From an uncultured Candidatus Binatia bacterium (GTDB lineage Bacteria; Desulfobacterota; Binatia; UBA9968; JAJDTQ01): a stretch of DNA of 64,000 bases. A model generated the notes under the pieces. That model was given only the letters and a program-made list of their open reading frames with translations, did not search any database and was not told the origin of the DNA. This document shows, in pieces, positions 42,694 through 59,768 of the stretch. The position numbers were made by a program, and so were the translations under genes. The stretch lies in the NCBI GenBank assembly GCA_965215605.1, contig OZ244070.1, positions 3,744,001 through 3,808,000 on the forward strand, given 5' to 3'. Within the stretch, counting starts at the first letter, position 1. The number at the start of each line of letters is the position of its first letter.

Positions 42694-42893
42694 GAGAACT
42701 CCCTTCTTGGTGAGAAACGCTGTCCTTAAGGCCACACACCATGCAAAAGACCATGGAGATTGTCAAGAACAAGGACATCCCAAGAACGGCGGGGACGGAG
42801 GCCATTCGGCTGTTGCCTATTCGATCCCCTTGTTGTAGGTGCTTACGCAGCCGCGCGTTCCAACGGACCCATACAAGTGGAAGGGCACGAACC

Positions 42894-44627: not shown

Positions 44628-44673
44628 CCGGGGCGTCCACATAGGCTCCACAAGGTTCCGGGAGGAACATGAC

Positions 44674-45285
44674 ATGAAGTCCGTCCATCTGCAGAGCCCG
44701 ATATCCGAGGAAGCCCTGCGCGCTCTCGACGCCGGCGATTCGGTCACCGTCAGCGGACGCCTGTTCACCTGCAGGTCGCTGACCTACGATCGCCTGATCG
44801 ATCCCGAGGCGGGGGAGGGCGTGCGCAACCGCCTAAGGGCGCTCGGTGCCGAGACCGTGTTCCACAGCGGCCCGCTGGTCAAGGAAGGGCCGGACCACGC
44901 CGAGATGATCGCCATGGTGCCCATGCCGAGCTGGCTCGCCGGACGCGAGAAGATCGAGAAGGCCGTCGGCCTGTTGGGTCTCAAGCTGATCATCGGCAAG
45001 GGCATGCTCGAAGGGCTGGAAGAGTTCTGCAAGAAGGCCGGCTGCGTGCACCTCGTATGCGCCGGCAACTATAACGAGTACGCCTCGAGCGTCGTCAAGG
45101 TTATCGAATGCGCCTGGCCCGAGCTGGGCCGGCCCGAGGCCATGTGGATCGTGGAGGCGGACGGTTTGGGCCCTCTCATCGTCGACGCCGACACCAAGGG
45201 CAGAAGCCTGTATCAGGACATCGACGTGGAGTTCAAGTCCGACGCCGCGGCGTTGCTGGAGGAGTTGGGGATCGACTTGGACTAA
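44674..45285 (+). CDS. Fe-S hydro-lyase beta subunit
   Basis: LDAGDSVTVSGRLFT, FHSGP, IIGKG, ELGRPEAMW and GPLIVDADTKG motifs. Confidence 0.87.
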   Translation: MKSVHLQSPISEEALRALDAGDSVTVSGRLFTCRSLTYDRLIDPEAGEGVRNRLRALGAETVFHSGPLVKEGPDHAEMIAMVPMPSWLAGREKIEKAVGLLGLKLIIGKGMLEGLEEFCKKAGCVHLVCAGNYNEYASSVVKVIECAWPELGRPEAMWIVEADGLGPLIVDADTKGRSLYQDIDVEFKSDAAALLEELGIDLD

Positions 45286-45508: not shown

Positions 45509-48500
45509 ATGCCACGGGTGGTAATGATGCGACAGCCTCAATTCATGGAACGCCGGCTACGTTCCGGAAGGGTCCGTCATCATTCTGGACGCGGCGGTAT
45601 TCTGGTTCATGTTTTGTGCGCCTTCCTGGCCTTGAGTCAGGCGAGCTTCGCGTTTGCTCAGCAGATGACGGAGGAGGAGAAGCAAGAGCAGAAGGAACTC
45701 GAGAAGCTCATCGGCAAGGAAAAGGACATCCAGTTCAAAACAGAGAGCTCGGACAAGGGCAAGGATGGTTTCGGTTCGGTCAAAGGTGATCCGAAGAGCC
45801 ATGACCCCGGGACCGATCCGAAGACACAGGAAATGATCCGAACTTATGAGGACCAGGTTGACACCACGCCTGGCACCAAGCTCGACCGGGCTGTCACACA
45901 CCGTTCTTCCGTCCATCTAGAAGGTGAGCTCAAGAAGCAGGTCGCCCGACTGGGCGGAAGCGTCCCGGCCGATGACATAGACCAGCACGTGGTCTTTCGA
46001 CCGAGTGAGGCCGCCAAGACCGACGCCGCGCTGAAAGATTGGGAGAAGAAACACTGGCGGCAACTGATCCGCGACCACAAGACGGAGCAGCTAAAACAGT
46101 CGCTACTGAGTCACGTCGAAGCGCCGCCAACCAAGCCTGTAGAACCAGGCTCGGGCGAAACCGGCCGCTTGAGCGGCAAGGGCGGCGGCCAGTCCCCCCA
46201 TAAGTCAAAGTTTTTCCAGATGATGCAGGCTGCGGGTGCGCTCAAGAAACCCGCGCCGGACAGCGCCAAGTCCACCGCCGCCCCCGGAAGCCAGGTCGCC
46301 TCCAAGGGTTCCACCCCAGGCGCCTCGCCAGCATCCGGAGGAATGCCGGGTTCACAGGCCAGCCGCCAGCCCTCAACCGCCAAGACCGCCGCTCCCAAGG
46401 GCGCAACAGCAGCGGGCGCGAAATCCACCGCCGCCCCCGGAAGCCAGGTCGCCTCCAAGGGTTCCACCCCAGGCGCCTCGCCAGCATCCGGAGGAATGCC
46501 GGGTTCACAGGCCAGCCGCCAGCCCTCAACCGCCAAGACCGCCGCTCCCAAGGGCGCAACAGCAGCGGGCGCGAAATCCACCGCCGCCCCCGGAAGCCAG
46601 GTCGCCTCCATGGGTTCCACCCCAGGCGCCTCGCCAGCATCCGGAGGAATGCCGGGTTCACAGGCCAGCCGCCAGCCGCCAACCGCCAAGACCGCCGCTC
46701 CCAAGGGCGCAACAGCAGCAGGCGCCAAGTCCACCGCCGCCCCCGGAAGCCAGGTCGCCTCCATGGGTTCCACCCCAGGCGCCTCGCCTCCATGGGTTCC
46801 ACCCCAGGCGCCTCGCCAGCATCCGGAGGAATGCCGGGTTCACAGACCAGCCGCCAGCCCTCAACCGCCAAGACCGCCGCTCCCAAGGGCGCAACAGCAG
46901 CGGGCGCCAAGTCCACCGCCGCCCCCGGAAGCCAGGTCGCCTCCATGGGTTCCACCCCAGGCGCCTCGCCGCATCCGGAGGAATGCCGGGTTCACAGACC
47001 CAGCCCCCAACCGCCAAGCAACCGTCAGGGCGCAACAGCAGACCGCCGGAAGCCAGGTCGCCTCCATGGGTTCCACCCCAGGCGCCTCGTCAGCATCCTC
47101 CCAAGGGCGCAAGAACAGCAGCAGCGGGCGCCAAGTCCACCGCCGCCCCCGGAAGCCAGGTCGCCTCCATGGGTTCCACCCCAGGCGCCTCGTCAGCATC
47201 CGGGGGAATGCCGGGTTCACAGGCCAGCCGCCAGCCGTCTTCCGTCCAGAGCACGGCTGGACAGCCTACATCGACGCCATCGGGCACCGGTACCGCTCGG
47301 AGAGGCCAGATTGCGAGTCTGCAGCAACCCGCCGACTCAGCGACCTCGAGTGGCACATCGCCAGGGAATGCCGAGGCCGGACGTACCCCGCCCTCGGCCG
47401 GGACAGGAACACAGGGGGCAGGGCAGTCAACTGGCGACCCTCTGGCCTCGTCGTTTGGAACTCAATTCAGCTTTGAAAGGGAGCGGCAGGCGCTGACCGC
47501 ACCGGACTCCGGCCCGGACGCGGCGACTCAGGGGGCGCAGCCGCCCGGTTCAACGTCGGCGGACCGACGGGTGGCCGCTCTCGCCGATCCATCGAAACCC
47601 GGAGGCTCTCACGCTGCCAGCGGAGAAGGCAGCCCCGGAGAACCCTCACGTTCCGGCACGACGGAACTCGCGGTTGCCGGCGACCAGGTCCACGGGGCCG
47701 GCACTGGCGAGAAGCCGCCTGGACAGAGCCCGGGAGACGGTTCCGAACAGCAATTGTCCGAAGCCGGCAAAACGCCGGACGACCAGAGCGGCATACCGTC
47801 CGGTACCGAAACCGCCGCGGCACCCTCCAGCGGACCGGAAACCGGGACCCGCGAGGTGACATCCGGCGATACGCCCGATGTCACCTCGCGGGACAGTGCG
47901 TCCAAGGAGCCCGAAGGAACCGGCTCCGAACAGTCGACCCAGGTGGCCGTTCCCTCGCCCCACGATCACACCGGGGATGCAACCGCGGGTACAGAGTCGG
48001 GTGGCGACGACCGGCCAAGCACCAGCGGGAGTGATTCCGAACCCCAGGAAGTTGCCGAGCGCGCCAGCGCCCCCGAGGGCGAGCGTCCGCGCATCGCCGA
48101 TAAAACGGCCCTCTCCCCGGAGGAAATGGATAAAGCCCTCGATGCCGTAGACAAGCTCGAGAAGGGCGAGGTCCTTGCCGAAGCGGACCGGGAACTCCTC
48201 CGAAGACTCGGAGCCGAGGTGGCGGGCGAAAACCGTTCCGCAAACGAGTATGACACGTTGGCCTCCCGTTGCCATGGTGTTGCCAAAGACTTCAAGGAAA
48301 TGGAGGAGGAAAACAAGGAGCGCCTGGGCACTTTCTATAAGGTTGCCACCTCGGCGGCTGCCGTTGACGAGGGGTATCCTGTGGCATCCAAACTCTTTCT
48401 CAAGACTGTTGCCGCTGTCCCAGCGGGGGCCGAGGCGAAGCAGGTGGCGAATGCCGGCAAACACACCATCGAGACAACCGAAGACCTTACGTCAAAATCG

Positions 48501-48998
48501 ATGGTTGAGACCCTGGAAAATGTAGCCGAGCGGGCCGCTGAGTTTCTTCCGGCACCTATTGATGATCGTCTGCAGGCTGCGGCCGAAGGCTTGCGGTCGA
48601 GGCGACAACTCAAGGAACTCTCCAGGTTGGACCCCGACTCTGCAGAATACAAAGCCAAGGTACGGCAGTTCGCGGAGGAAAAGAAGTCCAGGCTGGCAAG
48701 GAGACAGTGCCGATCGCTCAAAGGGATCGCGTTGGGCGAGGAGGGGTGTAGACTGGCCTTTGCGGGGGAGTCCGCTGTTGTCGCTGGAGGAAAGATCGGG
48801 GCAAGTCTGCATGACAACCTCGCTTGGAGCAAGGCCGAGAACCAGAGGCGGGAAGCTGCCGAGCAGTATGCCCTGAAGCGTAGAATCGAGTTCCAAGAAT
48901 GCGCCCGGATCGAGAGGTTCAAGGCGCAACTGGCACGGTGCCGGGATGGATACGCCGGGTGTCCGTTTTCCTCGGCGAGCCCCTTGCGCCCGGAGTAG
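45509..48998 (+). CDS. Large secreted Ser/Ala/Pro/Gly-rich repeat protein (~1150 aa if joined), interrupted by frameshifts inside the repeat tract
   Basis: ORF 45509..47476 has a signal-peptide-like LCAFLALSQASFAFA|QQ and the repeat in frame. ORF 46236..48998 carries the last repeat copy and a unique C-terminus. The start could be as late as ATG 45545. Confidence 0.65.
46265..47240 (+). repeat. 153-bp (51-aa) intragenic tandem repeat: 3 near-perfect copies plus about 4 rearranged or partial copies
   Basis: The unit AKSTAAPGSQVAS(K/M)GSTPGASPASGGMPGSQASRQPSTAKTAAPKGATAAG recurs at 46268, 46421, 46574 and 46727, then at 46909 (extra 29-nt duplication), followed by scrambled copies. Confidence 0.95.
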
Positions 48999-49006
48999 CC
49001 CCTGCC

Positions 49007-49321
49007 TTGATTATCAAGATCGGAAGAGCGCCGGGAAACGACTTCGTCATCGAGAATCCCACCGTGTCGCGTGAACACGCGGTGCTGGAGATCGAGGACG
49101 GGCAGATCGTCCTGCGGGATATCGGCAGCAAGTCGGGAACCTACGTGCTGGTCAACGGCAAGCCGGAACGGACCACCTATACGGTGGTCGCCGAGAACAC
49201 TTCGATCATGGTCGGGAACGAGCGTCTGCGCATCCACGACGTAGTTGACGCGGCATCCCGGAAGAGCCGCAAGGTCACCTACGTTCGCAACCCGATGACG
49301 GGCGAGATCGAGAAGCGATGA
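49007..49321 (+). CDS. FHA domain protein
   Basis: IKIGRAPGND, VSREHA and DIGSKSGTYV motifs. A TTG start after GGAG is assumed. Confidence 0.88.
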   Translation: MIIKIGRAPGNDFVIENPTVSREHAVLEIEDGQIVLRDIGSKSGTYVLVNGKPERTTYTVVAENTSIMVGNERLRIHDVVDAASRKSRKVTYVRNPMTGEIEKR

Positions 49322-50064
49322 AGCGGTTGTCATTTGCCGTTGGCGCCGCATGCCTGGCCGTCGTCCTGCTGTGCGCGATGCATCTCTACCTCTCGGACTC
49401 CGCGGCCAAGATTGTCCTGGACCGGGGCGGTCGGACGTACCCGTTCTCGGTCCAGAACGTCATGTGGATCATCTTCTTTGTCGGGCTGGCGGAAATCGTT
49501 CTCCGCTACCTCGAGGCGAGAGAGGAGGGCAGACAGCTCGGTTTCCGGTATCTGCCGGAGGACGAGGAGACGCTTCTCGTCGCGACCGACCTTCCGGCGG
49601 TGTACAAGAAGGTCTCCCTCGCCACGGGCTCCGACTACCTCTTCCTGCCGTCGCTCATCAAGCGAATCATCTCGGTGTTCCAGACCACGAAATCGGTCGA
49701 GAATGCGAGCGCCGTGCTCAACAGCAGCATCGATCTGCGCTCCCACGACCTCGACCTGAAATACAACATTCTGCGCTATGTCATGTGGGTCATTCCGACC
49801 CTCGGCTTCATCGGCACGGTGATCGGGATCTCGGATGCGCTGGCCTACGCAGGCGAGCCTGGGCGCAGCCAGGACCCCAATCTGCTGACCGAGCTCACGG
49901 CCCGGCTGGCGGTGGCATTCTATACGACGCTGGTTGCACTGGTGATGTCCGCCTTTCTCGTCCTCGTCATGAACGTGGTGCAGAGCTTCGAGGAGCGGAT
50001 CATCAACAGGTGCGGCCAGTATTGTCTGGATAATCTGGTCAATCGACTCTACAAGGTAGAATAG
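49318..50064 (+). CDS. MotA/TolQ/ExbB ion-channel family protein
   Basis: IPTLGFIGTVIGIS and LAVAFYTTLVAL signature helices, four hydrophobic segments, ATGA overlap. Confidence 0.9.
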   Translation: MKRLSFAVGAACLAVVLLCAMHLYLSDSAAKIVLDRGGRTYPFSVQNVMWIIFFVGLAEIVLRYLEAREEGRQLGFRYLPEDEETLLVATDLPAVYKKVSLATGSDYLFLPSLIKRIISVFQTTKSVENASAVLNSSIDLRSHDLDLKYNILRYVMWVIPTLGFIGTVIGISDALAYAGEPGRSQDPNLLTELTARLAVAFYTTLVALVMSAFLVLVMNVVQSFEERIINRCGQYCLDNLVNRLYKVE

Positions 50065-50067
50065 GTT

Positions 50068-50688
50068 ATGTTCAGACGGAAACGGAACACAAGCAAGGCG
50101 CCCGAGATTCCGGCCGTCTCCCGGAACCAGGAAATCGACGAGGACGAGACGATCGTCATCGACCTGTCCGAGCCGCACCAGCCGGGCCCCGAGGCCGTCA
50201 CGCTGGAACTGCCGGAAGAGGTCGAGGTGTCCGTATCGTCACCCGCTCTCGGGACCCCCGATGAAACGGTGGTGCTCACGGCCGGGTCGCGCGCAACCGC
50301 GCCGCCGCCGCCGGCCGGACCCGCCCCCGGGCCCATGTCCGCGGTCGACCCCGGCAATCGCGCCGGGTGGCTCGTGGTGGTTTCCGATTCCGGTTTCGGC
50401 CGCGCCTTCGGCCTGTCTCTCGGGCGCAGCACCGCCGGCCGCTCGGCGGCAAATGCCATATCGATCGACTGGGACGTGGCCGTCTCGGCCGAGGCGCATG
50501 CCATCATCGCCGCGGACCCGAAGTCCCGGAAGTTCTACGTCGTTGCCGGCAACTCGACCAATCTTGCCTATCTGAATGGCGCGCCGATCCTTAATACCGA
50601 GGAAATGTCCGATGGCGACAGGCTTCAGATCGGTGAGACCGAGATGGTGTTCGTCCAGCTCTTCGGCAAGTATGTCGACTGGCGCTGA
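50068..50688 (+). CDS. FHA domain protein with acidic/Pro-rich N-terminal region
   Basis: GWLVVVS, AGRS, VSAEAHA, STNLAYLNG and GDRLQIGET motifs. Confidence 0.87.
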   Translation: MFRRKRNTSKAPEIPAVSRNQEIDEDETIVIDLSEPHQPGPEAVTLELPEEVEVSVSSPALGTPDETVVLTAGSRATAPPPPAGPAPGPMSAVDPGNRAGWLVVVSDSGFGRAFGLSLGRSTAGRSAANAISIDWDVAVSAEAHAIIAADPKSRKFYVVAGNSTNLAYLNGAPILNTEEMSDGDRLQIGETEMVFVQLFGKYVDWR

Positions 50689-50708
50689 GGGCATCGGAAA
50701 GGTGCGAG

Positions 50709-51425
50709 GTGCGGATCGCCGCATCGAAAATCCGCTATCAGGGAACCCGTGATTCACAGGAGGATTTCGTCAGCCTGTTGTCGATCCGCAACCGGGGACA
50801 CGCCGCGGTCGGCGGGATACTGACCGACGGCATCGGCGGGCTGCCTGGCGGCGGCGATGCAAGCGCTACGGTGAACGCCTTCAGCCGGGCCTGGCTCGCG
50901 GACGAGTTGCCCGCGGTGGTGGAGGGCGATGTCGAAATCGAGAGTTGCCTCCGCCGCCTGCCGGCGGCGGCCGATGAGGCGCTGGCCTGTTACCAGTCGG
51001 AGAGCGGTATCCCTGACTGCGGAACCACATTGGTTGCCGCGGTTGTCCTCGATGAGGTCTGCCACTTCGTCTCGGTGGGCGATTCCCTGGTGCTTGCCAT
51101 CAACGCGGACCGAACGCTCACCCGTCTCAATCAACTTCACAACGCCGAGTTGGACGGGAGAGCGGCGCTGACCGCCGCGATTCTCGGACGCGGCATCAAG
51201 GCCATCGATCAGGGCAAGGCCCGTCTCGGCCCGGGCGGCCATCACAGCATCCTGCTGGCCTCGGACGGGATCCGGACACTTCGCGATGACGAGGTCGTCG
51301 CGGAATTGGACCATGCCTCCGAGGGCCCGTTGCGCCAAGTCGTGGACAGGGTGCGCCGCAAGCAGGCGGTGCGGCAGGACAATCTGGCAATGGCGCTGTT
51401 CCGCGTAGTGGCCGTCGGGACATAG
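50709..51425 (+). CDS. PP2C/PPM family Ser/Thr protein phosphatase
   Basis: RDSQED, DGIGG, GTT, VGDS, ASDG and QDN: all canonical PPM motifs. Confidence 0.9.
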   Translation: MRIAASKIRYQGTRDSQEDFVSLLSIRNRGHAAVGGILTDGIGGLPGGGDASATVNAFSRAWLADELPAVVEGDVEIESCLRRLPAAADEALACYQSESGIPDCGTTLVAAVVLDEVCHFVSVGDSLVLAINADRTLTRLNQLHNAELDGRAALTAAILGRGIKAIDQGKARLGPGGHHSILLASDGIRTLRDDEVVAELDHASEGPLRQVVDRVRRKQAVRQDNLAMALFRVVAVGT

Positions 51426-51531
51426 GACAGGGTCCCTGCAACCGTCTTCAGGCTCATCTTCGGCTTGCGGGCTGGAAGCCGTTTGGATATGGATACGGGC
51501 GGACACGGCTCGATTCGGGAGGGGGAATTGC

Positions 51532-53043
51532 ATGTTCAGAATCTTTTGTTCCGTAGCTTCCATGCTCGTTCTGGCTGGATGTATGGGAGGACTCGGAGGG
51601 TCCTGGGGCCCGGGCGCCGACGACAAGACACCGGTAAGAATCGAACCCGCCAAGTTCCGTGGCCTGCCCGTGGTAAGGGTGAGCTTCGTCGCCAGTGTCG
51701 ACGCTTCGGCCCGATTGCGCTACCAGGATGCCTACTGGAAGAATCCGATTCCCTCCCGCGCCAGCGACGAGTCCGAGGAGGGAGACGTCGCTACCAAGCC
51801 GGCCGACGGCAGCACGGCGGAGATCAACTTCAACGCGATGGAATCGAAGAACGTCTTCTACGCGTTTCATCTCGCCAAGTATCTGGAGGCCCGCGGCAGG
51901 GGGACCTACCTCGTCTTCCTCAATCCGGAAGTAGTGAAACACGACGACACCCGAGGGTTCTACCGTGAATCCTACGAAGACGGCCTGCCTCCGCATGACG
52001 TGGATGTCAGCTTCGGAGCCTATGTCCATCCGGACACCAAGCCGTCGAACGTGGTCGACACCACCTACGGCGAGTGGATCGCGCCGATCATTTCGGTACG
52101 CGTCGACAAGGCGTTCTCTTCCGCTACCGCCGGAGCGGTGGGACTTCCGGACCGGCTGACCTCGTATGCCGCCGACAGCGACGGCTACGGCGCGCGCGCG
52201 CAACTGGTGGATTTCCTCAATGCCAGGATCGGCAGGCCGACGGCGGTCAACCCGGGCACGGCGCGGGACAGCGGCAAACTCGCCGCCGGGGAATTCTACG
52301 CGCTCCCATCCGGTGAGGCCAGGTTGTCCGAGGGCGGGATCCCGAAGGAGGAGTTGACTGCGCAGGAGCTCGACGCGGTGTCCTACAATCCAGGCCGGCT
52401 CGACGCGTTCCCCGTCTACAAGGGCGTCCATCGGATTGTCGAGGTGGCGCTTGCCAAGGTCGACAATTCGAGGACGGCAACTCGTTCCCAGGAGGACTAC
52501 TGGGCGTTCTACGGCGAACCGAATGCGTCGACCATCGTCCTGCAGCGTAGCGACCGGGGCAAGCGTCGTTTTCTGGTCCGGGCGCGGCAGGCGGAACTTC
52601 AGTATCTTCGAGACCGGGATCGCAACTGGATGGAGGCGGTTCTGAACACATCCGACTTCACTTCCGGCTTCAACGAGTTGCGCGAGGCGGAGTTGAAGGC
52701 TCGGAACGAATTCGTCCAGGCCCGGATGAAGCAGGGACTAGGCGCGCTGCTGGCGGTAGGTGGTGCATTCGCTGCTGTCGGCGGCGCGCAAAGCGACAAT
52801 CCCCTCGCTACCGGAGCCGGGATGGCGATGGTCGGCACGGGGCTCACCATGGCTATATCGGCGCAGACGGTCATCGACCGTATCAACCAGGGGTTCGACA
52901 CCGCCTTCAGCAACTCCTACAATTCGCAACGGGACTATATCGTGGAGTTCGAGGAAGCCGAAAGGGAGACGATCAGGGCGCGCAACTATGAGGACTTCAG
53001 GAAACAACTCAAGAACCGCTACGCCAAGCGTTTTGGAGCGTAA
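51532..53043 (+). CDS. Hypothetical lipoprotein with C-terminal Gly/Ala-rich hydrophobic hairpin
   Basis: Lipobox LAGC at residues 14-17 and GGAGGGG RBS. Confidence 0.78.
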   Translation: MFRIFCSVASMLVLAGCMGGLGGSWGPGADDKTPVRIEPAKFRGLPVVRVSFVASVDASARLRYQDAYWKNPIPSRASDESEEGDVATKPADGSTAEINFNAMESKNVFYAFHLAKYLEARGRGTYLVFLNPEVVKHDDTRGFYRESYEDGLPPHDVDVSFGAYVHPDTKPSNVVDTTYGEWIAPIISVRVDKAFSSATAGAVGLPDRLTSYAADSDGYGARAQLVDFLNARIGRPTAVNPGTARDSGKLAAGEFYALPSGEARLSEGGIPKEELTAQELDAVSYNPGRLDAFPVYKGVHRIVEVALAKVDNSRTATRSQEDYWAFYGEPNASTIVLQRSDRGKRRFLVRARQAELQYLRDRDRNWMEAVLNTSDFTSGFNELREAELKARNEFVQARMKQGLGALLAVGGAFAAVGGAQSDNPLATGAGMAMVGTGLTMAISAQTVIDRINQGFDTAFSNSYNSQRDYIVEFEEAERETIRARNYEDFRKQLKNRYAKRFGA

Positions 53044-54361
53044 CCGGTGGACGGTGGCAGCGGGCCTCTCGATCGGACTGCTGTGGCTTGCGCTATCGGC
53101 AACCGCTCAAACTCCGGACATACAGCGCGGTGAGATCTGGCGGTATTGCGAAGAATACTTCGTCAAGGTCGAGGATCTCAAGAACGGGAAGGTCCCGGTC
53201 AGCAACGACGAGGCCCACTACCGCGTCCGTGACCTGTCGAGAGACTTCCTGCGTCTCGCCAAAGGTTTCCGGCCACGGAGTACGGAAGAGGGCCATGTTC
53301 TCGGAGAGTGCCTCAACCTTGCCAACGGCAACGCCTTGTTCTCCTTCGAGCAGGTGCAGAATCTGGAAGCCCAGGACGATGACTTCGTTGACATGGCCAC
53401 GACCGAGGCCATCAACAACTCGCGCGCCAGGGAGTTCGACACAAAAAAGGAGCTGGGACAGAAGTACGACCTCATGCGTGACGCCGAGATCGCCCGCGCG
53501 ACCTTCGATAGCGAGATCCGGGCGATAAACAACCATATCCTCGAGAATATCGCCACGGCCAATATGGCCGTGGCCCAGGCCACACGGAGTCACTTGGACC
53601 AAAGCTCCCGGTTGGGGCTCGCTCGCGGCGGGTACAACACCGCCTACGGTCCCAACGGCACCATCGTTTCCTTCAATGCCTTCTCGTTTCTCATTGCGAA
53701 GGCAAGCCAATCCATGATCAAGACGCGGTCGCAGCCACTTGCGCCGGGCCTGACGGCCTCCGCTCCCGCGGGGCAGAATGCCGCGGTGCCGGGGACCTAT
53801 ACAGCGGCGCCCCCGACTCCACCTTCCGCTCCTGGACCGGCCGGCAAGCTCTCCGCGCCCGCCCGTAAACCCGCAACCTCCGCGGCGGCGACGCCCGTGT
53901 CGGTCGCTACCGCATCAGGGGCTCCTGCATCGGCGACTCCTGCGTCAACGGCCCCAGCCTCGCCGACTACTGCATCGGCGTCGCCTGCGTCAGCACCGTC
54001 TGGCAGCAGGGTTCCTGCAACCGGCACGACCGGACCGACGTCAGCCGACACCACTGCGCTCGCGGCGGTGCCTGCCCCGGTCGACAGCAAGGCTCCCGAG
54101 GCCGATACACGCTGCGCCGCCTACCGCCTGACCGGCGATGGCGGGAAGTTCGCCGAGCTCGAAAACAAATGCGACATTCCCATCAGTTGGCTCTGGTGCT
54201 GGGTCCCGAAAGGAACGCCTGACTGCGAGCCCGACCAAGCCTCCGAAATCGTTCCCGCGAGGAGTCGCGTCCTGCTTCCCGGACCCGGGCCCGGCGAAAC
54301 CCCGCGTGCGGTGTTCCGCATCTGCGACATGTCGGATCCAGACAAGTTTTGCACGCTTTGA
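53033..54361 (+). CDS. Hypothetical secreted protein: helical N-domain, Ala/Pro/Ser/Thr linker, Cys-rich C-domain
   Basis: Signal-peptide-like VAAGLSIGLLWLALSATA|Q and six Cys in the last ~85 aa. The TTG start overlapping the upstream gene is assumed. Confidence 0.72.
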   Translation: MERNRWTVAAGLSIGLLWLALSATAQTPDIQRGEIWRYCEEYFVKVEDLKNGKVPVSNDEAHYRVRDLSRDFLRLAKGFRPRSTEEGHVLGECLNLANGNALFSFEQVQNLEAQDDDFVDMATTEAINNSRAREFDTKKELGQKYDLMRDAEIARATFDSEIRAINNHILENIATANMAVAQATRSHLDQSSRLGLARGGYNTAYGPNGTIVSFNAFSFLIAKASQSMIKTRSQPLAPGLTASAPAGQNAAVPGTYTAAPPTPPSAPGPAGKLSAPARKPATSAAATPVSVATASGAPASATPASTAPASPTTASASPASAPSGSRVPATGTTGPTSADTTALAAVPAPVDSKAPEADTRCAAYRLTGDGGKFAELENKCDIPISWLWCWVPKGTPDCEPDQASEIVPARSRVLLPGPGPGETPRAVFRICDMSDPDKFCTL

Positions 54362-54362
54362 C

Positions 54363-56807
54363 ATGGTGCTGCTTCCGAACAACGCGAAGATCGCAGAATA
54401 CAAGATTCTCGGGCATCTCGGCAGCGGCGGGTTCGCCAACACCTACCGGGCGTACGACAGCAATCTCGACAAGGACGTCGCGATCAAGGAGTTCTTTCCG
54501 AGGCGGTACTGCAGCCGGGACGAGAACTATCGGGTGCTTCCCCTTCCCGGTGAGGAGGAGCGGTTCCGGTCCTTGCGCGACTCCTTCCTGCGGGAAGCCC
54601 GCATCCTCGCCCAGTTCGACGAAAAAAACATCGTCAAGGTGCTGCGCTATTTCGAGGGCCTCGAAACCGCGTACATGATCATGGAGTACGTGGACGGCCG
54701 GAATCTCGGTTCGGTGATCCAGGAAAATGTCGTTCAGCCCGAGGATAGGGTCGTGGGCTGGCTCCGTGGACTTCTTCGCGGGCTCGGGACGGTCCACGCC
54801 GGCAAAGTCATCCACGGCGATATCAAACCGAGGAACATCATCATTACCGAGTCCGACGAAGCGGTGCTGATCGATTTCGGCGCGGCGGTCGCCCATGACG
54901 CGGATTCCGACGACGGCGCCGCCGAGGTGACGGAGACCGCCGGGGAGGTCTTCGCCAGTCTCAACTATGCCGCCCCCGAGCAGCTTCACGGCGACCGCGT
55001 CGATCAACGCACCGATCTCTATTCGCTTGGCTCCGTCTTCTACGAACTCGTTACCCACGAAAGACTCGGCCGGGACCGGACGGAGGAGATCGCCGAGGAC
55101 CAGATCCTGGCCTATGGCCGGTTCTACGGCGCCCGCTTTCTGAGGACCATTCATCGCGCGATCCAGCTCGATCCGGAGACCCGATTTTCCGATTCCGAGA
55201 GCTGGCTCGAAGAGTTGACGCTGTCGCGATGGGAGAAGACCGGGAGATTTCTGCGCCGAAGGCGCAAATCGCTGATCGCGGCGGCCGTGGTTCTCGCCGC
55301 CGCAACCTACGCCGTGAACTACGTCGTCGAGAACGAGATCGACCGCGAAAACGCTTATTTCAAGATCCTGGCGTCGAAGGCCGAGATCGACGCGCAGATG
55401 GATCTCGGGCACGGATACCGGAGGAAGTTGGAGAAGGCGCGCGACTATCTTTCCGCCTACGCAACCGAATACCGCTCGCAGGTCGACAGGCTCGCGCCCG
55501 CGAACCTGATTACGGGACGCTCCTCGGTGGAGGGCCTGCGGCAGACGGTGCGCGTGACCGAGTCCTTGGCGACAAGGCTGTCGGCCGTTGCCGCCAGGAT
55601 CGACGCGATGCAGGCGAAATACTATTTCAGCCGTTACCCGGGTGCTGTCGAGGAGGCGGACCGCCTGGTCAGGGACATCGATGCCCGGATCGCCCGTTTG
55701 ACACGGGATCTTCTCGCCGCCATCGTCGAGAATGGCATCGTCGGCGAAGGTCGCAGGCGCCGGATCCGTGTCGACAACGTCGGGCTTGCGGAGCTCGTCA
55801 CCGGGGTCAAGGAAAGCGCGGAGCCGGTCACCCTGCCGGAGATGGTGCCGAGAAGCCGGCCGCTGGTGGATTCCTTCCTCACGCGCCAGCTTGAGCGCAT
55901 GCAGCGTGCGCGGCTCGCGCGCGAACGGGCCAGCACCCTGTCAAGGCTTGCGACGCTCCGCGATGCCTACCCGAAGGGAAGCCGCGCCGCGGTATTCCCG
56001 AAACTGATCGAAGAGGCGCGTCAGGCTGATGCGTTGAAGGACCTGAAGGCGCTCGTCGCCCGAGGCGAGCGCACTGCCAAGACCATCGACCGGGAACTGC
56101 AACTCGCCGAGGTCCGCCGCAAGAAGCTGCGTGCCGAAGCCAAGCTCCGCGGCGCCATACAGAAGATCGAGGCCGGAATGCGGCCGGTTCCTCCGGGCCG
56201 GTTCAAGATGGGCGGCCCCGACCAGGGCTATGCCCAGCCGGTCCGCGAGGTCTCGGTCTCCCGGTTTTTCCTCGGAGTCAACGAAGTCAGCGTCGCCGAA
56301 TGGATGGTGTGCGTGAGAGAGAAGAAATGCGCGGCCGCAAGCGGCACCAGGATGGACCGTCCGGTCACCGGCATCACGTGGAACCAGACGCAGGAGTTCA
56401 TCCGTTGGCTGAACGGGCGCAGCAGGCGCTACCGCTTCCGGTTGCCGTCGGAGGCCGAATGGGAATACGTGATCAAGCGCTACGGCTACCGCGAGAAGGA
56501 ACTGTCAGGCGGCCTCATGTCGATCACCGCGAACAACACCAACAAGCTCGGCCTCAACGCGATGCTCGGCAATGCACTCGAATGGCTCGATGACTGCTGG
56601 CACGGCGGCTACTACCGCGCGCCCGTGGACGGCTCCTCCTGGAACCGCGGACTACAGTGCAACAAACGAGTGGTGCGCGGCAGCAGTTGGGACGGCAAGC
56701 ACCGCCTTGAAGCGAGAAACGCCGCCTATTTCCGGCCGCCTCAGGGTGTCGAGCGCACCAAGTCTTTGCCGACCCTTGGTTTTCGACTCGCGGGTGACCG
56801 GAAATGA
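54363..56807 (+). CDS. Membrane Ser/Thr protein kinase with coiled-coil stalk and C-terminal FGE-sulfatase (SUMF1-like) domain
   Basis: Kinase motifs LGSGGF, VAIKE, HGDIKPRN, DFG and APE. TM LIAAAVVLAAATYAV follows RRRRK. FGE motifs RLPSEAEWEY, MLGNALEW, RVVRGSSW and GFRL. Confidence 0.92.
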   Translation: MVLLPNNAKIAEYKILGHLGSGGFANTYRAYDSNLDKDVAIKEFFPRRYCSRDENYRVLPLPGEEERFRSLRDSFLREARILAQFDEKNIVKVLRYFEGLETAYMIMEYVDGRNLGSVIQENVVQPEDRVVGWLRGLLRGLGTVHAGKVIHGDIKPRNIIITESDEAVLIDFGAAVAHDADSDDGAAEVTETAGEVFASLNYAAPEQLHGDRVDQRTDLYSLGSVFYELVTHERLGRDRTEEIAEDQILAYGRFYGARFLRTIHRAIQLDPETRFSDSESWLEELTLSRWEKTGRFLRRRRKSLIAAAVVLAAATYAVNYVVENEIDRENAYFKILASKAEIDAQMDLGHGYRRKLEKARDYLSAYATEYRSQVDRLAPANLITGRSSVEGLRQTVRVTESLATRLSAVAARIDAMQAKYYFSRYPGAVEEADRLVRDIDARIARLTRDLLAAIVENGIVGEGRRRRIRVDNVGLAELVTGVKESAEPVTLPEMVPRSRPLVDSFLTRQLERMQRARLARERASTLSRLATLRDAYPKGSRAAVFPKLIEEARQADALKDLKALVARGERTAKTIDRELQLAEVRRKKLRAEAKLRGAIQKIEAGMRPVPPGRFKMGGPDQGYAQPVREVSVSRFFLGVNEVSVAEWMVCVREKKCAAASGTRMDRPVTGITWNQTQEFIRWLNGRSRRYRFRLPSEAEWEYVIKRYGYREKELSGGLMSITANNTNKLGLNAMLGNALEWLDDCWHGGYYRAPVDGSSWNRGLQCNKRVVRGSSWDGKHRLEARNAAYFRPPQGVERTKSLPTLGFRLAGDRK

Positions 56808-57877
56808 AGGTGCGGCAACTCCTTTTCGGACTCCTGGCCGCGTCGCTGTTTGCCGCGGGAAACTCCGCGGCGGAAACCAGGTTCCTGTTCAGCTCCCAGT
56901 CGAAAAATCACAAGTTCAGTGTCGTGTCGGTCGACGGGGGGCTCGTGGTGGATTCACGCCTGTCTCCCTCCCTCGGTTCCGGCCTGACGCTCCGCTACAT
57001 CGCGAGGGAAACCGACATCACGATCCAGGCCGTGAACGTTCCGCCGCCTGTCGAGGTTTTCACCTACTTCAACGGCCCGCCGCCCGGCGACATCTGCAGG
57101 CATGCCGTGTTCCTCGGAGAACTTTTCGCCCCGACGGGAATCGAGCACCGTGTCTATGCCGACGGCGAGCCGAAGTGTACCGACGTCGCTCCGGCGGGTG
57201 AGGGCGCACGCCGCCTGGCCGCGGACCTGGCGGACCTCACGGAGGGGTATGTCCGGCGGCTTCTTTTCGTCGTGGGACCCGCGGCCCCGGGGAACGTTCC
57301 GGAAATCGTCTGGCAACAACGCCGGATCACTGCCAAGGAGTTCCGCGCGAAGGCGACGCTGCTGCGGGAGTTGACCACCTTGCTCGAAAACGCCCGTGAG
57401 GGCCAAGTGTCGTTTCTCTCCTCGGCGGTCTATCGCGTGTTCGGCGGTCCCGTGGTTGCGGTCATTGGGACCGCAGCGGGCGAAGCCGGACGCGTCACCC
57501 TGCTTGCCGCCGGCGACGTCGGTCCACCCTACGAGCTCTGGCTGTTTCTCGGCCTCCCTGTGGTGGCCATCGCCGTGCTGGTCCTGCTGGTTATCGTGCT
57601 CGTTCGCAGACGGCGGCGGAAACGGACGATCACGAGTTCCCCGGTCAAGAGGGTGATCCGCATCGGCTATGGCCCGGATCTCGACATTTCCCTCGGCGAC
57701 GAGGGAGAGCGCGAAGTGCTGTCCATTCGGGTCCACCAGGACGGCCTCGCTACCGCCACCGCCGTCAGTCGGGTCGACAAAATCTCGCTCAACGGCAAAC
57801 GCTTCTCCGGCACCGGCCGGATCTCCCCCGCCGATTCGCTCTTCGTCAACGACCGCAGGATCCTCTTGAGGATATGA
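56804..57877 (+). CDS. Single-pass membrane protein with exported N-domain and cytoplasmic degenerate FHA-like domain
   Basis: Signal peptide, TM LWLFLGLPVVAIAVLVLLVIVLV followed by RRRRRKR, then VIRIGYGPDLDISL...ISLNGKR...DSLFVN. Confidence 0.72.
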   Translation: MKVRQLLFGLLAASLFAAGNSAAETRFLFSSQSKNHKFSVVSVDGGLVVDSRLSPSLGSGLTLRYIARETDITIQAVNVPPPVEVFTYFNGPPPGDICRHAVFLGELFAPTGIEHRVYADGEPKCTDVAPAGEGARRLAADLADLTEGYVRRLLFVVGPAAPGNVPEIVWQQRRITAKEFRAKATLLRELTTLLENAREGQVSFLSSAVYRVFGGPVVAVIGTAAGEAGRVTLLAAGDVGPPYELWLFLGLPVVAIAVLVLLVIVLVRRRRRKRTITSSPVKRVIRIGYGPDLDISLGDEGEREVLSIRVHQDGLATATAVSRVDKISLNGKRFSGTGRISPADSLFVNDRRILLRI

Positions 57878-58824
57878 AACGCCGCGATCGCTCGATCGAG
57901 ACCATCAGCCTGTCCGCCATCGACCTGTTCGCGTCGGCGCTGGGAGCGTTCATCGTCATTACCGCGGTCTTGATCCCGTATTACCCCAATCTCAAGGATG
58001 GCCACCGCAATGTCGCGGTCCTCGAACGCGAAGCCCAGGAGAACCAGAAACGCACGGCGCGGGCGGTGGAAGCCGAACAACTCGCCCGTGCCGAGGCGAA
58101 ACGCCGCCGTGAGCAACAGGCGGCGGCGGCGGCGAAGGCACGCACGCAGCGGCGGCGGATCCACGCCGCCATCCAAAATGAGCACACAAAAGGTATCGCG
58201 CTCCGGAGTACCGTGAAGGACCTGACGAAGAACCTGTCGAATCTGCAAAAGGAGAATCAGGCACGGCGCAGACAGTTCGCGGGAAGGCAGTCGGAGTTTT
58301 CGATATTGGGCCTGGTCCTCAAGGCCAGGTCGATCGTCATCGTCGTCGATCTTTCCGGAAGCATGAGTAACTGGAGCGGCCTCATGGTGAAGACACTCAC
58401 CGAGATCGTTTCGTCGTTTCACGACGGGATCCGGTTCGCCATCCTCGGGTATCAGGGCACGCGCGGCGTGTCCCAGTTCTGGCCCGCGCGCAAGCAGATG
58501 GCGCTCGCGGACACGCGAAGCAAATCGAGTGCGCTGGCGTTCGTCAGGAGCCTTCCGAGCCGCTTCGATGGATCCACGCCCACCCAGACAGCGCTCTTGA
58601 CCGCCCTGGTATACAAGCCACAGGCCATTGTCCTGATCAGTGACGGTTCACCGACCGACGCCGAGCCGGACGACATCGTCGCCAAGCTCACGCGCCTCAA
58701 TCGCGGAGTCACGGCAATCCATACGGTGGCGCTTGGTGACTACCTGAAACATCCTGAGCTCGTCGTGTTCCTCAGCAAGCTCGCGGCGCGGAACAAGGGG
58801 CGTTTCGTCGGTGTGATCCGGTGA
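57874..58824 (+). CDS. Membrane-anchored coiled-coil plus VWA domain protein (intact MIDAS)
   Basis: N-terminal TM SAIDLFASALGAFIVITAVL and VWA motifs DLSGS, STPT and ISDG. Confidence 0.87.
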   Translation: MKRRDRSIETISLSAIDLFASALGAFIVITAVLIPYYPNLKDGHRNVAVLEREAQENQKRTARAVEAEQLARAEAKRRREQQAAAAAKARTQRRRIHAAIQNEHTKGIALRSTVKDLTKNLSNLQKENQARRRQFAGRQSEFSILGLVLKARSIVIVVDLSGSMSNWSGLMVKTLTEIVSSFHDGIRFAILGYQGTRGVSQFWPARKQMALADTRSKSSALAFVRSLPSRFDGSTPTQTALLTALVYKPQAIVLISDGSPTDAEPDDIVAKLTRLNRGVTAIHTVALGDYLKHPELVVFLSKLAARNKGRFVGVIR

Positions 58825-59768
58825 AGAAGAAGATCCGCGATATCGAGGTTTTCAACCTGTCCGCCCTGGACCTGTTTGCCTCGGCCATGGGCGCATTTGT
58901 CCTGCTGAGCGTGATGATGCTGCCGTACTTCTTCAAGGGCAAGGAACTGGAAGAGGTCATGGAGCATCTGAAGCAGGAGGTCGCGGCCACCGCCGCGCAA
59001 GCCGGTGAAGCCGAAGCCGCCGCGCGCACGGCCGTGACCGCCGCACGGAACGTCACCGAAGACAACGTCGCCGAGACGGGCAAGGGGGGGCGTGAACTGG
59101 CGGCGCTCCGGGCGAAGTCCGCGGAACTCTCGGCGCGAATCGATGGCCTCCGGAAGGAAATCGAACGGGAGAAGCGGAAGAAGGTCGCTGTCAAGCCTGA
59201 CAAGGGTGGGCACAAGGTCTCTTTCCGCCTGCTCGGCCTGAAAACCAACGAAGACCGCTATCTGATCCTGATCGACGGTGCGGCGAGGATCAAGAGAAAC
59301 ACAGGCAATCTGCCGAAGGTCCTGACCGAGGTGGTATCGGTCTTCGGGCCCGGAAAGGAGTTCGCCATCGCCTTCTACCGGCACGCCGCCGCCGGGCTGC
59401 TATACGAGCGCTGGCCCAAGACCGGCTTTGTCGAAGGCTCCTCCGAGACTCGGACCAAGGCGGTAGCTTTCATGAAAAAACAGTATGAAAAGATGTCGGG
59501 CCGAAGCGCCACCTACCAGGCCCTCGAACGGGCGGTCGGCGAACAGGCCGACGCGGTGATCTTCATCTCGGACGGCTTCATTTCCCGCAAGACCAATCTC
59601 GGACGCGGTCCCGTTCAGGTCATCGACGAGATCAGCGGAAAGAATTCACGGGGCATCCAGGTGAACAGCGTTGCCGTCGGCGTCTGGTTCCGCAATCCCG
59701 GCTTTGCCGACTTCATGAACCAACTCAGACTGCGGAACGGCGGCGACTTCAAGGGCGTGCCGCCCTGA
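58821..59768 (+). CDS. Membrane-anchored coiled-coil plus VWA-like protein (degenerate MIDAS), paralog of the upstream gene
   Basis: N-terminal TM SALDLFASAMGAFVLLSVMML, LIDGAAR in place of DxSxS, and ISDG. GTGA overlap. Confidence 0.83.
   Translation: MKKKIRDIEVFNLSALDLFASAMGAFVLLSVMMLPYFFKGKELEEVMEHLKQEVAATAAQAGEAEAAARTAVTAARNVTEDNVAETGKGGRELAALRAKSAELSARIDGLRKEIEREKRKKVAVKPDKGGHKVSFRLLGLKTNEDRYLILIDGAARIKRNTGNLPKVLTEVVSVFGPGKEFAIAFYRHAAAGLLYERWPKTGFVEGSSETRTKAVAFMKKQYEKMSGRSATYQALERAVGEQADAVIFISDGFISRKTNLGRGPVQVIDEISGKNSRGIQVNSVAVGVWFRNPGFADFMNQLRLRNGGDFKGVPP

Follow-up and report, generated by a model that had tools for sequence, protein, structure and literature searches.

An eleven-gene cluster around a TolQ/ExbB-like channel gene

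The DNA analysed here is a stretch of 64,000 nucleotides (the window) from the genome of an uncultured Candidatus Binatia bacterium (assembly GCA_965215605.1, contig OZ244070.1, positions 3,744,001–3,808,000 of the forward strand). The list of open reading frames (ORFs) of the window and their translations contained a cluster of 11 co-oriented genes on the + strand (45509–59768), named here g1 to g11. The cluster combines a channel gene of the MotA/TolQ/ExbB family with genes for FHA proteins, a PP2C-type phosphatase, a Ser/Thr kinase and two paralogous proteins, of which the first carries a clear von Willebrand factor A (vWA) domain. The genes are listed below with coordinates, strand and the evidence for each assignment.

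45509..48998, +, g1: secreted repeat protein rich in Ser, Thr, Pro, Ala and Gly, with a Cys-containing C-terminal domain; frame broken at least four times in this assembly
49007..49321, +, g2: small cytoplasmic FHA protein, 104 aa from TTG (Pfam FHA, 4.6e-15)
49318..50064, +, g3: TolQ/ExbB-like channel subunit of 248 aa, putative A-subunit (Pfam MotA_ExbB, 1.7e-13)
50068..50688, +, g4: FHA protein with a disordered N-terminal half (Pfam FHA, 3.1e-08)
50709..51425, +, g5: cytoplasmic PP2C-type Ser/Thr phosphatase (Pfam PP2C_2, 1.3e-12)
51532..53043, +, g6: lipoprotein with lipobox LAGC (translation and hydropathy)
52988..54361, +, g7: secreted protein with a Cys-rich C-terminal domain (translation, hydropathy and start-codon analysis)
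54363..56807, +, g8: bitopic Ser/Thr kinase with an FGE-sulfatase-like domain (Pfam Pkinase, 5.2e-38; FGE-sulfatase, 3.6e-26)
56804..57877, +, g9: bitopic protein with signal peptide, periplasmic domain, transmembrane (TM) helix and cytoplasmic FHA fold (hydropathy and AF2 model)
57874..58824, +, g10: putative motor B-subunit with an Asp-containing membrane helix (Asp helix) and a VWA domain (Pfam VWA, 3.1e-12)
58821..59768, +, g11: paralogue of g10 (26% identity, E 6e-32) whose VWA has a degenerate metal-ion-dependent adhesion site (MIDAS)

Four-nucleotide overlaps of start and stop codons join g2 to g3 (49318), g8 to g9 (56804), g9 to g10 (57874) and g10 to g11 (58821); the remaining spacings within the cluster are +3, +20 and +1 nt, and the widest, between g5 and g6, is 106 nt. 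An earlier sequence-only reading of the window had described eleven co-oriented genes with these overlaps and one gap of about 100 nt, and the ORFs agree with it. Its calls of FHA, MotA/ExbB, FHA, PP2C, kinase-FGE and first VWA proteins were recovered by Pfam for g2, g3, g4, g5, g8 and g10. The lipoprotein and the secreted Cys-rich protein that it had seen were also borne out, by the lipobox of g6 and by the signal-like N-terminus and Cys-rich C-terminus of g7, and its TM-FHA-like protein was upheld by an FHA fold in the AF2 model of g9, on which Pfam is silent. Two further calls stood in part. The second TM-VWA protein, g11, is indeed a full-length paralogue of g10, but it lacks a Pfam VWA match and its MIDAS is degenerate; the giant secreted repeat protein g1 has an intact orthologue in the closest genome, but it is not one open frame in this assembly. 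No credible family was found for g1, g6, g7, g9 or g11 in the Pfam, NCBIfam and PADLOC scans, in which the g7 query began at 52985, one codon before its ATG. The ATG codons at 52988 and 54363 are the probable starts of g7 and g8, respectively, and for g2 a start at TTG 49007 (giving 104 aa) or GTG 48959 is more likely than at ATG 48899.

The g3 protein matched Pfam MotA_ExbB (PF01618) with 50.9 bits against a cut-off of 22.9, and its AF2 model had a pLDDT (predicted local distance difference test) of 95.8. When the model was compared with solved structures by VIA, residues 25–248 fitted TolQ (8vlw_B) with a Z of 14.8 and a root-mean-square deviation (rmsd) of 3.2 over 206 aa; Z was 12.2–13.7 for ExbB (13.7 for 5sv0_B), 9.3–10.9 for ZorA and 8.6–10.3 for MotA/PomA. 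The best Foldseek match of the same model had an E of 1.3e-3, just above the 1e-3 line of that search, and a sequence search of the PDB with the g3 family profile returned only MotA 9luc at E 0.93. An extra N-terminal TM helix precedes the TolQ-like part by both hydropathy and the AF2 model. Furthermore, two threonines, T167 and T204, were invariant in 57 family members (alignment A4) and in a 9-sequence alignment (A2), and they aligned with threonines in the two TolQ/ExbB paralogues of the same genome, to which g3 is only 17–19% identical; g3 lacks the glutamate found in the canonical ‘AEAL’ stretch. The genome has three MotA_ExbB genes and two ExbD genes. Each ExbD gene adjoins one of the other two MotA_ExbB genes, and no ExbD/MotB gene stands beside g3. 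As judged from its modelled fold, g3 is a TolQ/ExbB-fold channel protein, and it is the putative A-subunit, forming the pentamer, of a 5:2-type motor. A complex prediction for g3 with g2 (alignments A4 and A3) reached no verdict, with a score of 0.01; the first row of A3 is window:48992-49321, which starts five codons before the proposed TTG.

In the g10 protein, the VWA domain is joined by a helical, charged linker (about 100 aa) to an N-in TM helix that contains Asp17 (SAIDLFASALGAF). In both g10 and g11 the N-terminus is a basic tail followed by a single TM helix with the motif S-A-[IL]-D-L-F-A-S-A-[LM]-G-A-F and D17. To place this helix in a wider context we used 80 loci of other genomes centred on relatives of g3 (hereafter MotA-like), which are the best 80 of at least 525 confirmed relatives and hence the most similar ones, not a random sample. 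A hidden Markov model (HMM) of the helix found 99 further copies, besides the two of the window, in 64 of these loci. All 101 copies keep the Asp within D-[LIVM]-[FL]-A-x-x-x-G, and in 99 of them it lies 14–16 residues from the N-terminus, after a basic tail. Where at least 7 kb of sequence was available on both sides, an Asp-helix gene was found within 10 kb of the MotA-like gene in 41 of 47 loci. Neither full-length g10 nor g11 matched Pfam ExbD (PF02472) or MotB at E ≤ 0.01, so the assignment as B-subunits rests on motif, topology and gene linkage and not on detectable homology. By these features g10 and g11 are likely the pore partners (B-subunits) of a 5:2-type motor, whereas the sequence-only reading had taken the two TM-VWA proteins as separate envelope proteins.

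The C-terminal VWA domains of g10 and g11 should, from the predicted topology, lie in the periplasm. The MIDAS of g10 is intact (DLSGS...GST...SDG), and that of g11, which Pfam VWA did not match, is degenerate (DGAAR...GRS...SDG) in a comparison over 78 long relatives. The same pairing of an intact with a degenerate MIDAS was found in the loci L001, L002 and L024 and in all gammaproteobacterial pairs; in the alphaproteobacterial vWA pairs both members have D-x-[TR]-x-S. A PDB sequence search with g10 gave no match. Short Asp-helix proteins (212–263 aa) that have no vWA, and only weak coiled-coil-like matches behind the helix, also occur (L038:10301-10954, L007:12221-12892, L033:8825-9562 and similar ones), which suggests that the head of the motor partner is exchangeable.

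Phosphorylation genes and lineage-specific secreted genes

The two FHA proteins that flank g3 both carry conserved threonine motifs outside the FHA domain. The g2 protein has a canonical FHA domain followed by the C-terminal motif R-[ND]-P-x-T-G-E-I (T98). Among 57 g2-like proteins, the threonine of this motif is kept in 54 and the isoleucine at +3 in 53, and the FHA residues G, R and H are kept in 57, 53 and 57, respectively. In g4, the threonines lie in the disordered N-terminal half, T28 in DETIVI and T67 in DETVVL. The second of them is present in all of 32 aligned g4 relatives, within [ED][ED][RK]-T-R-[LI]-[VIL], and the first in 23 of the 32. Both the g2-like and the g4-like motifs have a hydrophobic residue at +3, and many FHA domains favour such a residue at that position after phosphothreonine (pThr). 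The g4 protein also gave domain-level NCBIfam matches to OdhI and FhaB, both below the cut-off. By analogy, g4 is a candidate phospho-switch of the GarA/OdhI type.

The kinase g8 shows the motifs VAIK, HGD (non-RD), DFG and APE. Its cytoplasmic Hanks kinase is followed by a TM helix (304–322) and, in the periplasm, by a linker of about 280 aa and an FGE-sulfatase-like domain of the C-type-lectin fold, for which the nearest solved relative was PvdO (5hha, 8.4e-11), followed by FGE and PorK. The outer domain of the relatives' kinases varies and may be FGE, Sel1, Lcl_C, a beta-helix or PG_binding.

By hydropathy and the AF2 model, g9 has a periplasmic domain of about 220 aa, a TM helix (249–267) and a cytoplasmic FHA fold (281–357). 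Block-mean pLDDT was 65–84 over residues 281–357 and below 50 in the rest. The 50 best VIA rows for the model cover residues from 275/283 to 357 and are filled by FHA-domain structures (best 3gqs_B, Z 8.3, rmsd 3.8 over 75 aa), and Pfam FHA did not match g9. The C-terminus of g9 is thus assigned an FHA fold with moderate model confidence. Only two sequence relatives of g9 were found in a collection of 5.8 billion proteins, and its counterpart in L002 shares the topology and is 22% identical over the last 85 aa. In a 4-sequence alignment, Tyr289 (‘GY’) occupies the usual site of the pocket Arg, and ‘SIRVH’ is kept in the window and not in L002. The layout of g9 (signal peptide, periplasmic domain, TM helix, FHA fold) matches that of trypsin-TM-FHA proteins of other lineages, in which the catalytic GNSGGP is, on reading the sequences, kept in L072 and lost in L055. 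An impression that the periplasmic part of g9 is a decayed trypsin-like domain was dropped as unsupported, the model pLDDT being below 50 there.

The remaining genes, g1, g6 and g7, encode secreted proteins or a lipoprotein, and tblastn found relatives of them in only 3–4 of the 80 loci. On this sequence evidence, they are lineage-specific accessories outside the conserved core, and the idea of the sequence-only reading that secreted repeat proteins are part of the machine was not sustained. The lipoprotein g6, whose lipobox was read from translation and hydropathy, had relatives at E ≤ 1e-3 in only 27 clusters among 1.84 billion representatives. No Pfam domain was found in the aligned part of the 17 of these that were scanned, one of which carries a C-terminal PG_binding_1. 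The g7 protein has a signal-like N-terminus, a helical N-terminal part, a linker rich in Pro, Ala, Ser and Thr and a Cys-rich C-terminal domain; a PDB sequence search gave no match, and tblastn found relatives only in L001 and L002 among the 80 loci.

The g1 reading frame is distributed over ORFs in three frames (45509–47476, 46792–47496 and 46236–48998), and tracking of the repeat peptide showed that it switches frame at least four times within about 46790–47110. Beside the frame changes lies a 29-nt tandem duplication (46755–46817). The region 46263–47110 holds an array of a 153-nt (51-aa) repeat in 3.4 copies, behind which come the 29-nt duplication and partial units of lengths not divisible by three. 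In the closest genome, L001, a Candidatus Binatia metagenome-assembled genome whose MotA-like protein is 97% identical, the g1 orthologue is an intact ORF of 1474 aa (L001:5269-9693); behind a signal-like N-terminus it has about 14 of the 51-aa repeats, then a low-complexity stretch that is acidic and, at the C-terminus, a domain containing Cys. Furthermore, in every one of four public runs the assembled contigs end at about 46292–46309 and begin again at about 47181–47224, and between these points there are only small fragments of raised depth. In run X1, the contig fragments inside the array have a depth of 23–75 compared with about 13 in the flanks, and the bin 46970–47126 is covered by none of the assembled contigs of the public runs. 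These observations suggest that the real genome has many more g1 repeat copies than this assembly. The frame breaks are probably, though not provenly, a collapsed repeat array, because all contigs break there and fragments of raised depth lie inside. In three of the runs, contigs connect 47285 with 49792, the shorter arm being only 21 nt long; this junction in metagenome contigs is probably due to chance or to repeats.

Conservation and distribution of the gene set

The MotA-like protein had 1511 relatives at E ≤ 1e-3 in a large protein collection. Among 185,579 species-representative genomes scanned, at least 525 of 577 pattern matches were confirmed as relatives, and the 80 loci drawn from these belong to Alpha- and Gammaproteobacteria, Latescibacterota, Acidobacteriota and Binatia. 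The gene set recurs, whole or partial, around the MotA-like gene in all 80, which makes the grouping more than chance. Domain counts, obtained by ad hoc HMMs run on stop-to-stop frames in all loci, are listed below; the content of the loci was in agreement between these HMMs, tblastn with the window proteins and a Pfam check of 135 ORFs from 11 loci, in which ten far-flank ORFs were left out.

Any FHA: 76/80 loci
Two or more FHA: 64/80 loci
Small FHA gene directly upstream of the MotA-like gene: 64/80 loci (66/80 by relaxed criteria)
Asp-helix protein: 64/80 loci
Two Asp-helix proteins: 35/80 loci
Asp-helix protein with VWA: 43/80 loci
Kinase: 54/80 loci
Kinase-FGE fusion: 25/80 loci
PP2C: 36/80 loci
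Kinase or PP2C: 66/80 loci; 44/47 of those with at least 7 kb on both sides
Trypsin-TM-FHA protein: 16/80 loci
Divergent TPR-CHAT protease: 8/80 loci

Judged by these sequence matches, the kinase, phosphatase and FHA genes travel with the putative motor across phyla. The synteny in other genomes that the sequence-only reading had called for was therefore found, as the combination of channel, kinase/PP2C/FHA and vWA genes. In a quick maximum-likelihood tree of the MotA-like proteins the clades match the gene-order types, which argues that the modules have been inherited together, and the window groups with two alphaproteobacterial loci (SH-aLRT 100). The MotA-like gene was found in none of 200 other genomes sampled from the phylum of the window (E ≤ 1e-30), and in 17 of 151 genomes, the centre genome included, of the order to which the genome of L065 belongs. 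This patchy distribution fits lateral spread.

Several loci differ from the window in their gene complement. Immediately upstream of the vWA pair, a divergent gene codes for a TPR-CHAT (caspase-like) protease of about 1000 aa whose N-terminus is signal-like; this gene is seen in L055:4343-7354(-), L065:4090-7212(-) and six more gammaproteobacterial loci. Expanded clusters occur in the cultured carriers Nitrincola alkalisediminis (L072:3878-19173) and Thiomicrospira microaerophila (L032). In the former there are four kinases (outer domain FGE, Sel1, Lcl_C or none) and two PP2C genes, and the cluster further encodes an RDD-FHA protein, an active trypsin-TM-FHA protein and a short protein that has the Asp helix but no vWA domain. 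In addition, a HEPN/AbiU2-like gene (L059:4563-5840) and a DUF3368/UPF0175 toxin-antitoxin-like pair (L007:4931-5685) lie within a few kb of the cluster.

In the window, the cluster is flanked by genes for fumarase subunits, a TauE-type exporter, an isochorismatase, a nitrile hydratase and a hydrolase, so it does not lie within a T6SS (type VI secretion system), Tad, Ton or flagellar locus. The Pfam, PADLOC and NCBIfam searches matched nothing in the cluster to a structural family of flagella, TonB, Tol-Pal, T6SS or Zorya. The sequence-only reading had noted that such structural genes are missing and had inferred a self-contained apparatus; the cluster is indeed self-contained, and both here and at the 11 loci with annotated flanks it lies outside any T6SS, Tad or Ton locus. 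No Rfam family reached its gathering score in the window between 44500 and 60500, and a promoter and terminator scan gave no excess over shuffled sequences and no notable terminator-like site inside the cluster. GC content of the cluster region is slightly below that of the rest of the window. Upstream, all on the + strand, lie an alpha-type fumarase gene (42741–43820), a TauE/SafE-like exporter gene (43872–44627) and a C-terminal-type fumarase gene (44419–45285). Because the ORFs of the latter two overlap in different frames, one of these calls may be spurious.

Proposed mechanism, alternative explanations and known systems

We lean, with modest confidence, towards reading the cluster as the genes of a 5:2-type membrane motor (MotAB/ExbBD/TolQR) that is powered by ions, wired to its own threonine-phosphorylation circuit and at work in sensing and responding in the cell envelope. 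Linkage, motifs and fold give good support to the predicted architecture, in which a TolQ-like pentamer and a vWA heterodimer with Asp helices are combined with a circuit of kinase, PP2C and FHA proteins that would act on or through the motor. In this model, the g10/g11 heterodimer would sit in the pore of the g3 pentamer, and rotation of the pentamer relative to the dimer would be powered by protons passing through Asp17 and the ring of Thr167/Thr204. Standing on their linkers of about 100 aa, the VWA heads would hold a ligand in the periplasm or outer membrane; candidates for it in this organism are the lipoprotein g6 and the secreted proteins g1 and g7. A periplasmic cue would be read by g8 through its FGE-like lectin-fold domain, and the kinase would phosphorylate T67 and T28 of g4 and T98 of g2, all of the pT-x-x-[I/L/V] type bound by FHA domains; the PP2C protein g5 would reset these marks. 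The motor may then be gated, read out or used as an assembly platform by the FHA proteins, namely g2 (whose translation is coupled to that of g3), g4 and g9 with its membrane-tethered fold.

The weakest step of the model is its role, which may be the sensing of, and response to, an extracytoplasmic threat or a disturbance of the envelope. Such a role is favoured by the variable sensor and protease complement, by the patchy distribution and by analogy to two kinds of ATPase-based pathway, the MoxR-vWA conflict systems and the actinobacterial Esr pathway, with which the relatives share, as far as the accessible texts of PMC7159879 and PMC13622651 go, the vocabulary of vWA, trypsin/caspase peptidases, the FGS domain and kinase/PP2C/FHA. 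The cluster could be the diderm counterpart of these MoxR-vWA/kinase/phosphatase/FHA pathways of the ‘Esr’ type, and a proton motor may replace the ATPase because the vWA heads work in an ATP-free periplasm. A fuller version of this idea, which we consider less likely, is that the system is a proton-motor form of MoxR-vWA threat sensing in diderms, in which the vWA heterodimer, with one ligand-competent and one degenerate head, would be turned by the TolQ-like pentamer and would mechanically probe a ligand in the periplasm or at the surface, the lectin-fold kinase would write pThr, FHA proteins would read it and FHA-tethered periplasmic proteases would, in many lineages, execute the response.

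A number of points weigh against a phosphorylation-wired motor with a sensing role. The locus counts describe the relatives closest to g3, and the domain counts come from ad hoc models. No FHA was seen in 4 of the 80 loci; kinase and PP2C are both absent nearby in 3 of the 47 loci with full context; and 6 of the 47 have no Asp-helix gene within 10 kb, although all five of those six genomes that were searched whole encode an Asp-helix protein elsewhere (E 1e-23 to 6e-25). No Pfam ExbD or MotB match appeared even at E ≤ 10 when the queries were the first 70 aa of g10, g11 and three relatives, together with three full-length short members. With a Tyr at the position of the pocket Arg, g9 may not bind phospho-Thr. 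A further candidate contact, the conserved residue T85 in a cytoplasmic loop of g3 as an FHA docking or phosphorylation site, was dropped because it is Ser in some members (L007 and L023) and fits FHA binding poorly; it also lies outside the conserved columns of A4. The cluster of the window has no recognizable effector such as a nuclease, a toxin or an active protease, so that a defence-like output is not visible, and the flanks here and at most annotated loci are housekeeping genes, not defence islands. Finally, a family member occurs in only 1 of 72,556 records of a plasmid collection (NZ_CP125637.1:163387-164055, H1; 52% identity, on a 1.33-Mb replicon of Rhizobium leguminosarum, a record unannotated in that collection) and in none of 50,697 phage records; 2.9 million viral contigs held no true member and one weak generic MotA-like match (40% over 65 aa).

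The alternative that survives best is that the motor is an outer-envelope force transducer. Its vWA heads would transmit the pull to a partner in the outer membrane or at the surface, and the pull may serve adhesion, gliding, remodelling of the surface or the export and display of g1, with phosphorylation as an on/off gate only. This is the proposal of PMC12204202 (Mol Biol Evol 2025), whose main text argues for tensile force at the outer membrane, and it also covers some of the roles listed in the sequence-only reading. The vWA heads on long linkers behind a TolQ-like motor are in keeping with it, as are the lipoprotein and two secreted proteins encoded in the operon of this lineage and a domain-level NCBIfam match of the g2 FHA to the gliding protein GltG (43 bits against a cut-off of 650). 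However, g1, g6 and g7 are too rarely found among the loci to be the conserved load, and the neighbourhoods of the 11 annotated loci show no conserved family of outer-membrane barrels, secretins or adhesins. The heavy and variable complement of signalling and protease genes would also be unusual in a structural role. We regard a force transducer of this kind as unlikely.

A Zorya-like anti-phage defence, in which the motor would detect perturbation of the envelope at phage entry and trigger an abortive or protective response through kinase and FHA, appears improbable. Like ZorAB, the cluster has a non-flagellar motor of the MotA family for which sensing can be proposed; the g3 model fits ZorA at the Z values given above, and PADLOC gave a weak ZorA2 match on g3 (1.1e-05 over 88 profile positions). 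The patchy distribution, the variable sensor domains, the CHAT or trypsin proteases of the relatives and the HEPN/AbiU2 and toxin-antitoxin-like genes near L059 and L007 can be read in the same direction. Unlike ZorA, however, g3 has no long cytoplasmic tail, g10 and g11 carry vWA heads, and the PADLOC models for the ZorB peptidoglycan-binding domain, ZorC and ZorD found no match in the cluster. The sequence-only reading had asked for a PADLOC check for a known defence system, and apart from the ZorA-domain match only generic kinase models responded, so no system was recognized. In addition, g3 is structurally closer to TolQ and ExbB than to ZorA, and the housekeeping flanks and the near absence from plasmid, phage and viral records do not favour a defence system of this kind.

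Proton-powered periplasmic proteolysis or quality control, with substrate captured by the vWA heads, work done by the motor, cleavage by tethered trypsin-like or CHAT proteases and FHA tails coupling these to the kinase state, has a low probability in our judgement. It draws on the trypsin-TM-FHA genes beside the motor in a fifth of the loci, on the GNSGGP kept in L072, on the signal-bearing TPR-CHAT genes and on the layout that g9 shares with the trypsin-TM-FHA proteins. Against this, Pfam detected no protease family in the cluster of the window, g9 included, where the periplasmic part of the AF2 model is of low confidence; the L055 counterpart reads as lacking the catalytic Ser motif; and many type B alphaproteobacterial loci have no protease gene. 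That the kinase, PP2C and FHA genes regulate another process and merely lie near the TolQ-like/vWA pair is very improbable: such genes are common and promiscuous in many of these phyla and three full-context loci do without kinase and PP2C, but in 64–66 of the 80 loci, from several phyla, a small FHA gene directly adjoins the MotA-like gene or overlaps it, 4-nt overlaps tie g2 to g3 and g8 to g9, g10 and g11, and the gene-order types follow the MotA-like phylogeny.

If the fuller version, a proton-motor form of threat sensing, is true, this would be the first 5:2 motor controlled by, or reporting through, Ser/Thr phosphorylation. Ion motors of the 5:2 type drive flagella, Ton/Tol, gliding/T9SS (type IX secretion system) and Zorya, and to our knowledge each new load of these motors has revealed new envelope biology. 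Here the family would swap the usual peptidoglycan- or TonB-binding partner for vWA heads. Should the link be functional, it would offer a directly testable proton motor that is gated or read out by phosphorylation, and a means by which ligands could be worked on mechanically in a periplasm that has no ATP. Genetics are feasible because cultured carriers exist, namely Nitrincola alkalisediminis JCM 19317, Thiomicrospira microaerophila ASL8-2 and the Rhizobium leguminosarum replicon, the copy on the last being a possible genetic model.

Compared with the known machines, the cluster resembles TolQR-TolA and ExbBD-TonB in the A-subunit fold of g3, the Thr pair in the last two TM helices and the single-pass N-in partner with an Asp. 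It differs from them in the extra N-terminal TM helix of g3, its low identity to the TolQ/ExbB paralogues and the missing ‘AEAL’ glutamate, and also in that g10 and g11 lack the ExbD/TolR periplasmic domain, that TolA or TonB was not matched in the cluster and that it has phospho-signalling genes of its own. In the T6SS, PpkA, PppA and Fha1 form a set of membrane Hanks kinase with a periplasmic sensor, PP2C and FHA protein that gates an envelope machine, and PpkA carries a periplasmic vWA domain. No T6SS structural family was matched in the cluster or its flanks; TagH/VI_FHA (TIGR03354) reached 21.6 bits against a cut-off of 120.25.

The closest account of the motor core is that of PMC12204202, which predicts in silico TM-tethered ‘TPH-vWA’ proteins encoded as heterologous pairs beside tolQ-like genes without tolR/exbD, and presents AF3 models of TPH-vWA with TolQ-like proteins that place a conserved Asp in a pore-type helix together with a Thr ring. 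The motors of the window and its relatives agree with that description in the tolQ-like gene without tolR/exbD, the paired TM-vWA proteins, the conserved Asp and the Thr ring, the likeness being one with the published description, which has an exemplar from Idiomarina. The kinase/PP2C/FHA wiring, the tethered proteases, the pairing of intact with degenerate MIDAS and the Thr motifs, all present here, are absent from its main text, in which ‘kinase’ occurs 0 times and ‘FHA’ only inside ‘FhaC’; its supplements may show neighbouring genes. The accessible text of PMC12505986 (mBio 2025) contains no vWA or FHA terms, and in the literature searched no kinase/PP2C/FHA module joined to a MotA/TolQ/ExbB gene was found. 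The motor core had thus already been noted by computation, and the kinase/PP2C/FHA/protease wiring was not found in print. The statement of the sequence-only reading that no functional description exists holds for experiments, of which PMC12204202 reports none in its accessible text, but not for the TolQ-like/TPH-vWA core, which is described there computationally.

As to the signalling side, PMC7159879 (eLife 2020) describes, in its accessible text, MoxR-vWA conflict systems with trypsin/caspase peptidases, FGS domains and sporadic links to FHA, kinase and PP2C, and that text uses ‘MotA’, ‘ExbB’ and ‘TolQ’ 0 times. The Esr pathway of actinobacteria (PMC13622651, bioRxiv 2026; accessible text) has been studied experimentally and senses epibionts via Thr phosphorylation in the disordered region of an FHA protein; its parts are a secreted repeat sensor, MoxR, vWA, kinase, phosphatase and FHA output. 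The present cluster departs from both in having a TolQ-like channel in place of the MoxR AAA+ ATPase (no AAA or MoxR family was matched in the 11 proteins by Pfam or NCBIfam) and in that its vWA domains are periplasmic by prediction, anchored through an Asp helix and found in diderm hosts. It is like them in its set of vWA protein(s), Ser/Thr kinase, phosphatase and FHA output protein, and its relatives share with the MoxR-vWA systems the trypsin or caspase-type peptidases and the FGS/FGE domains. With Esr it further has in common a candidate regulatory Thr in the disordered region of an FHA protein (T152 of EsrG there, the T67/T28 motifs of g4 here) and a secreted filamentous repeat protein (EsrA there, g1 here). 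We infer that this likeness to the MoxR-vWA and Esr pathways is one of functional analogy.

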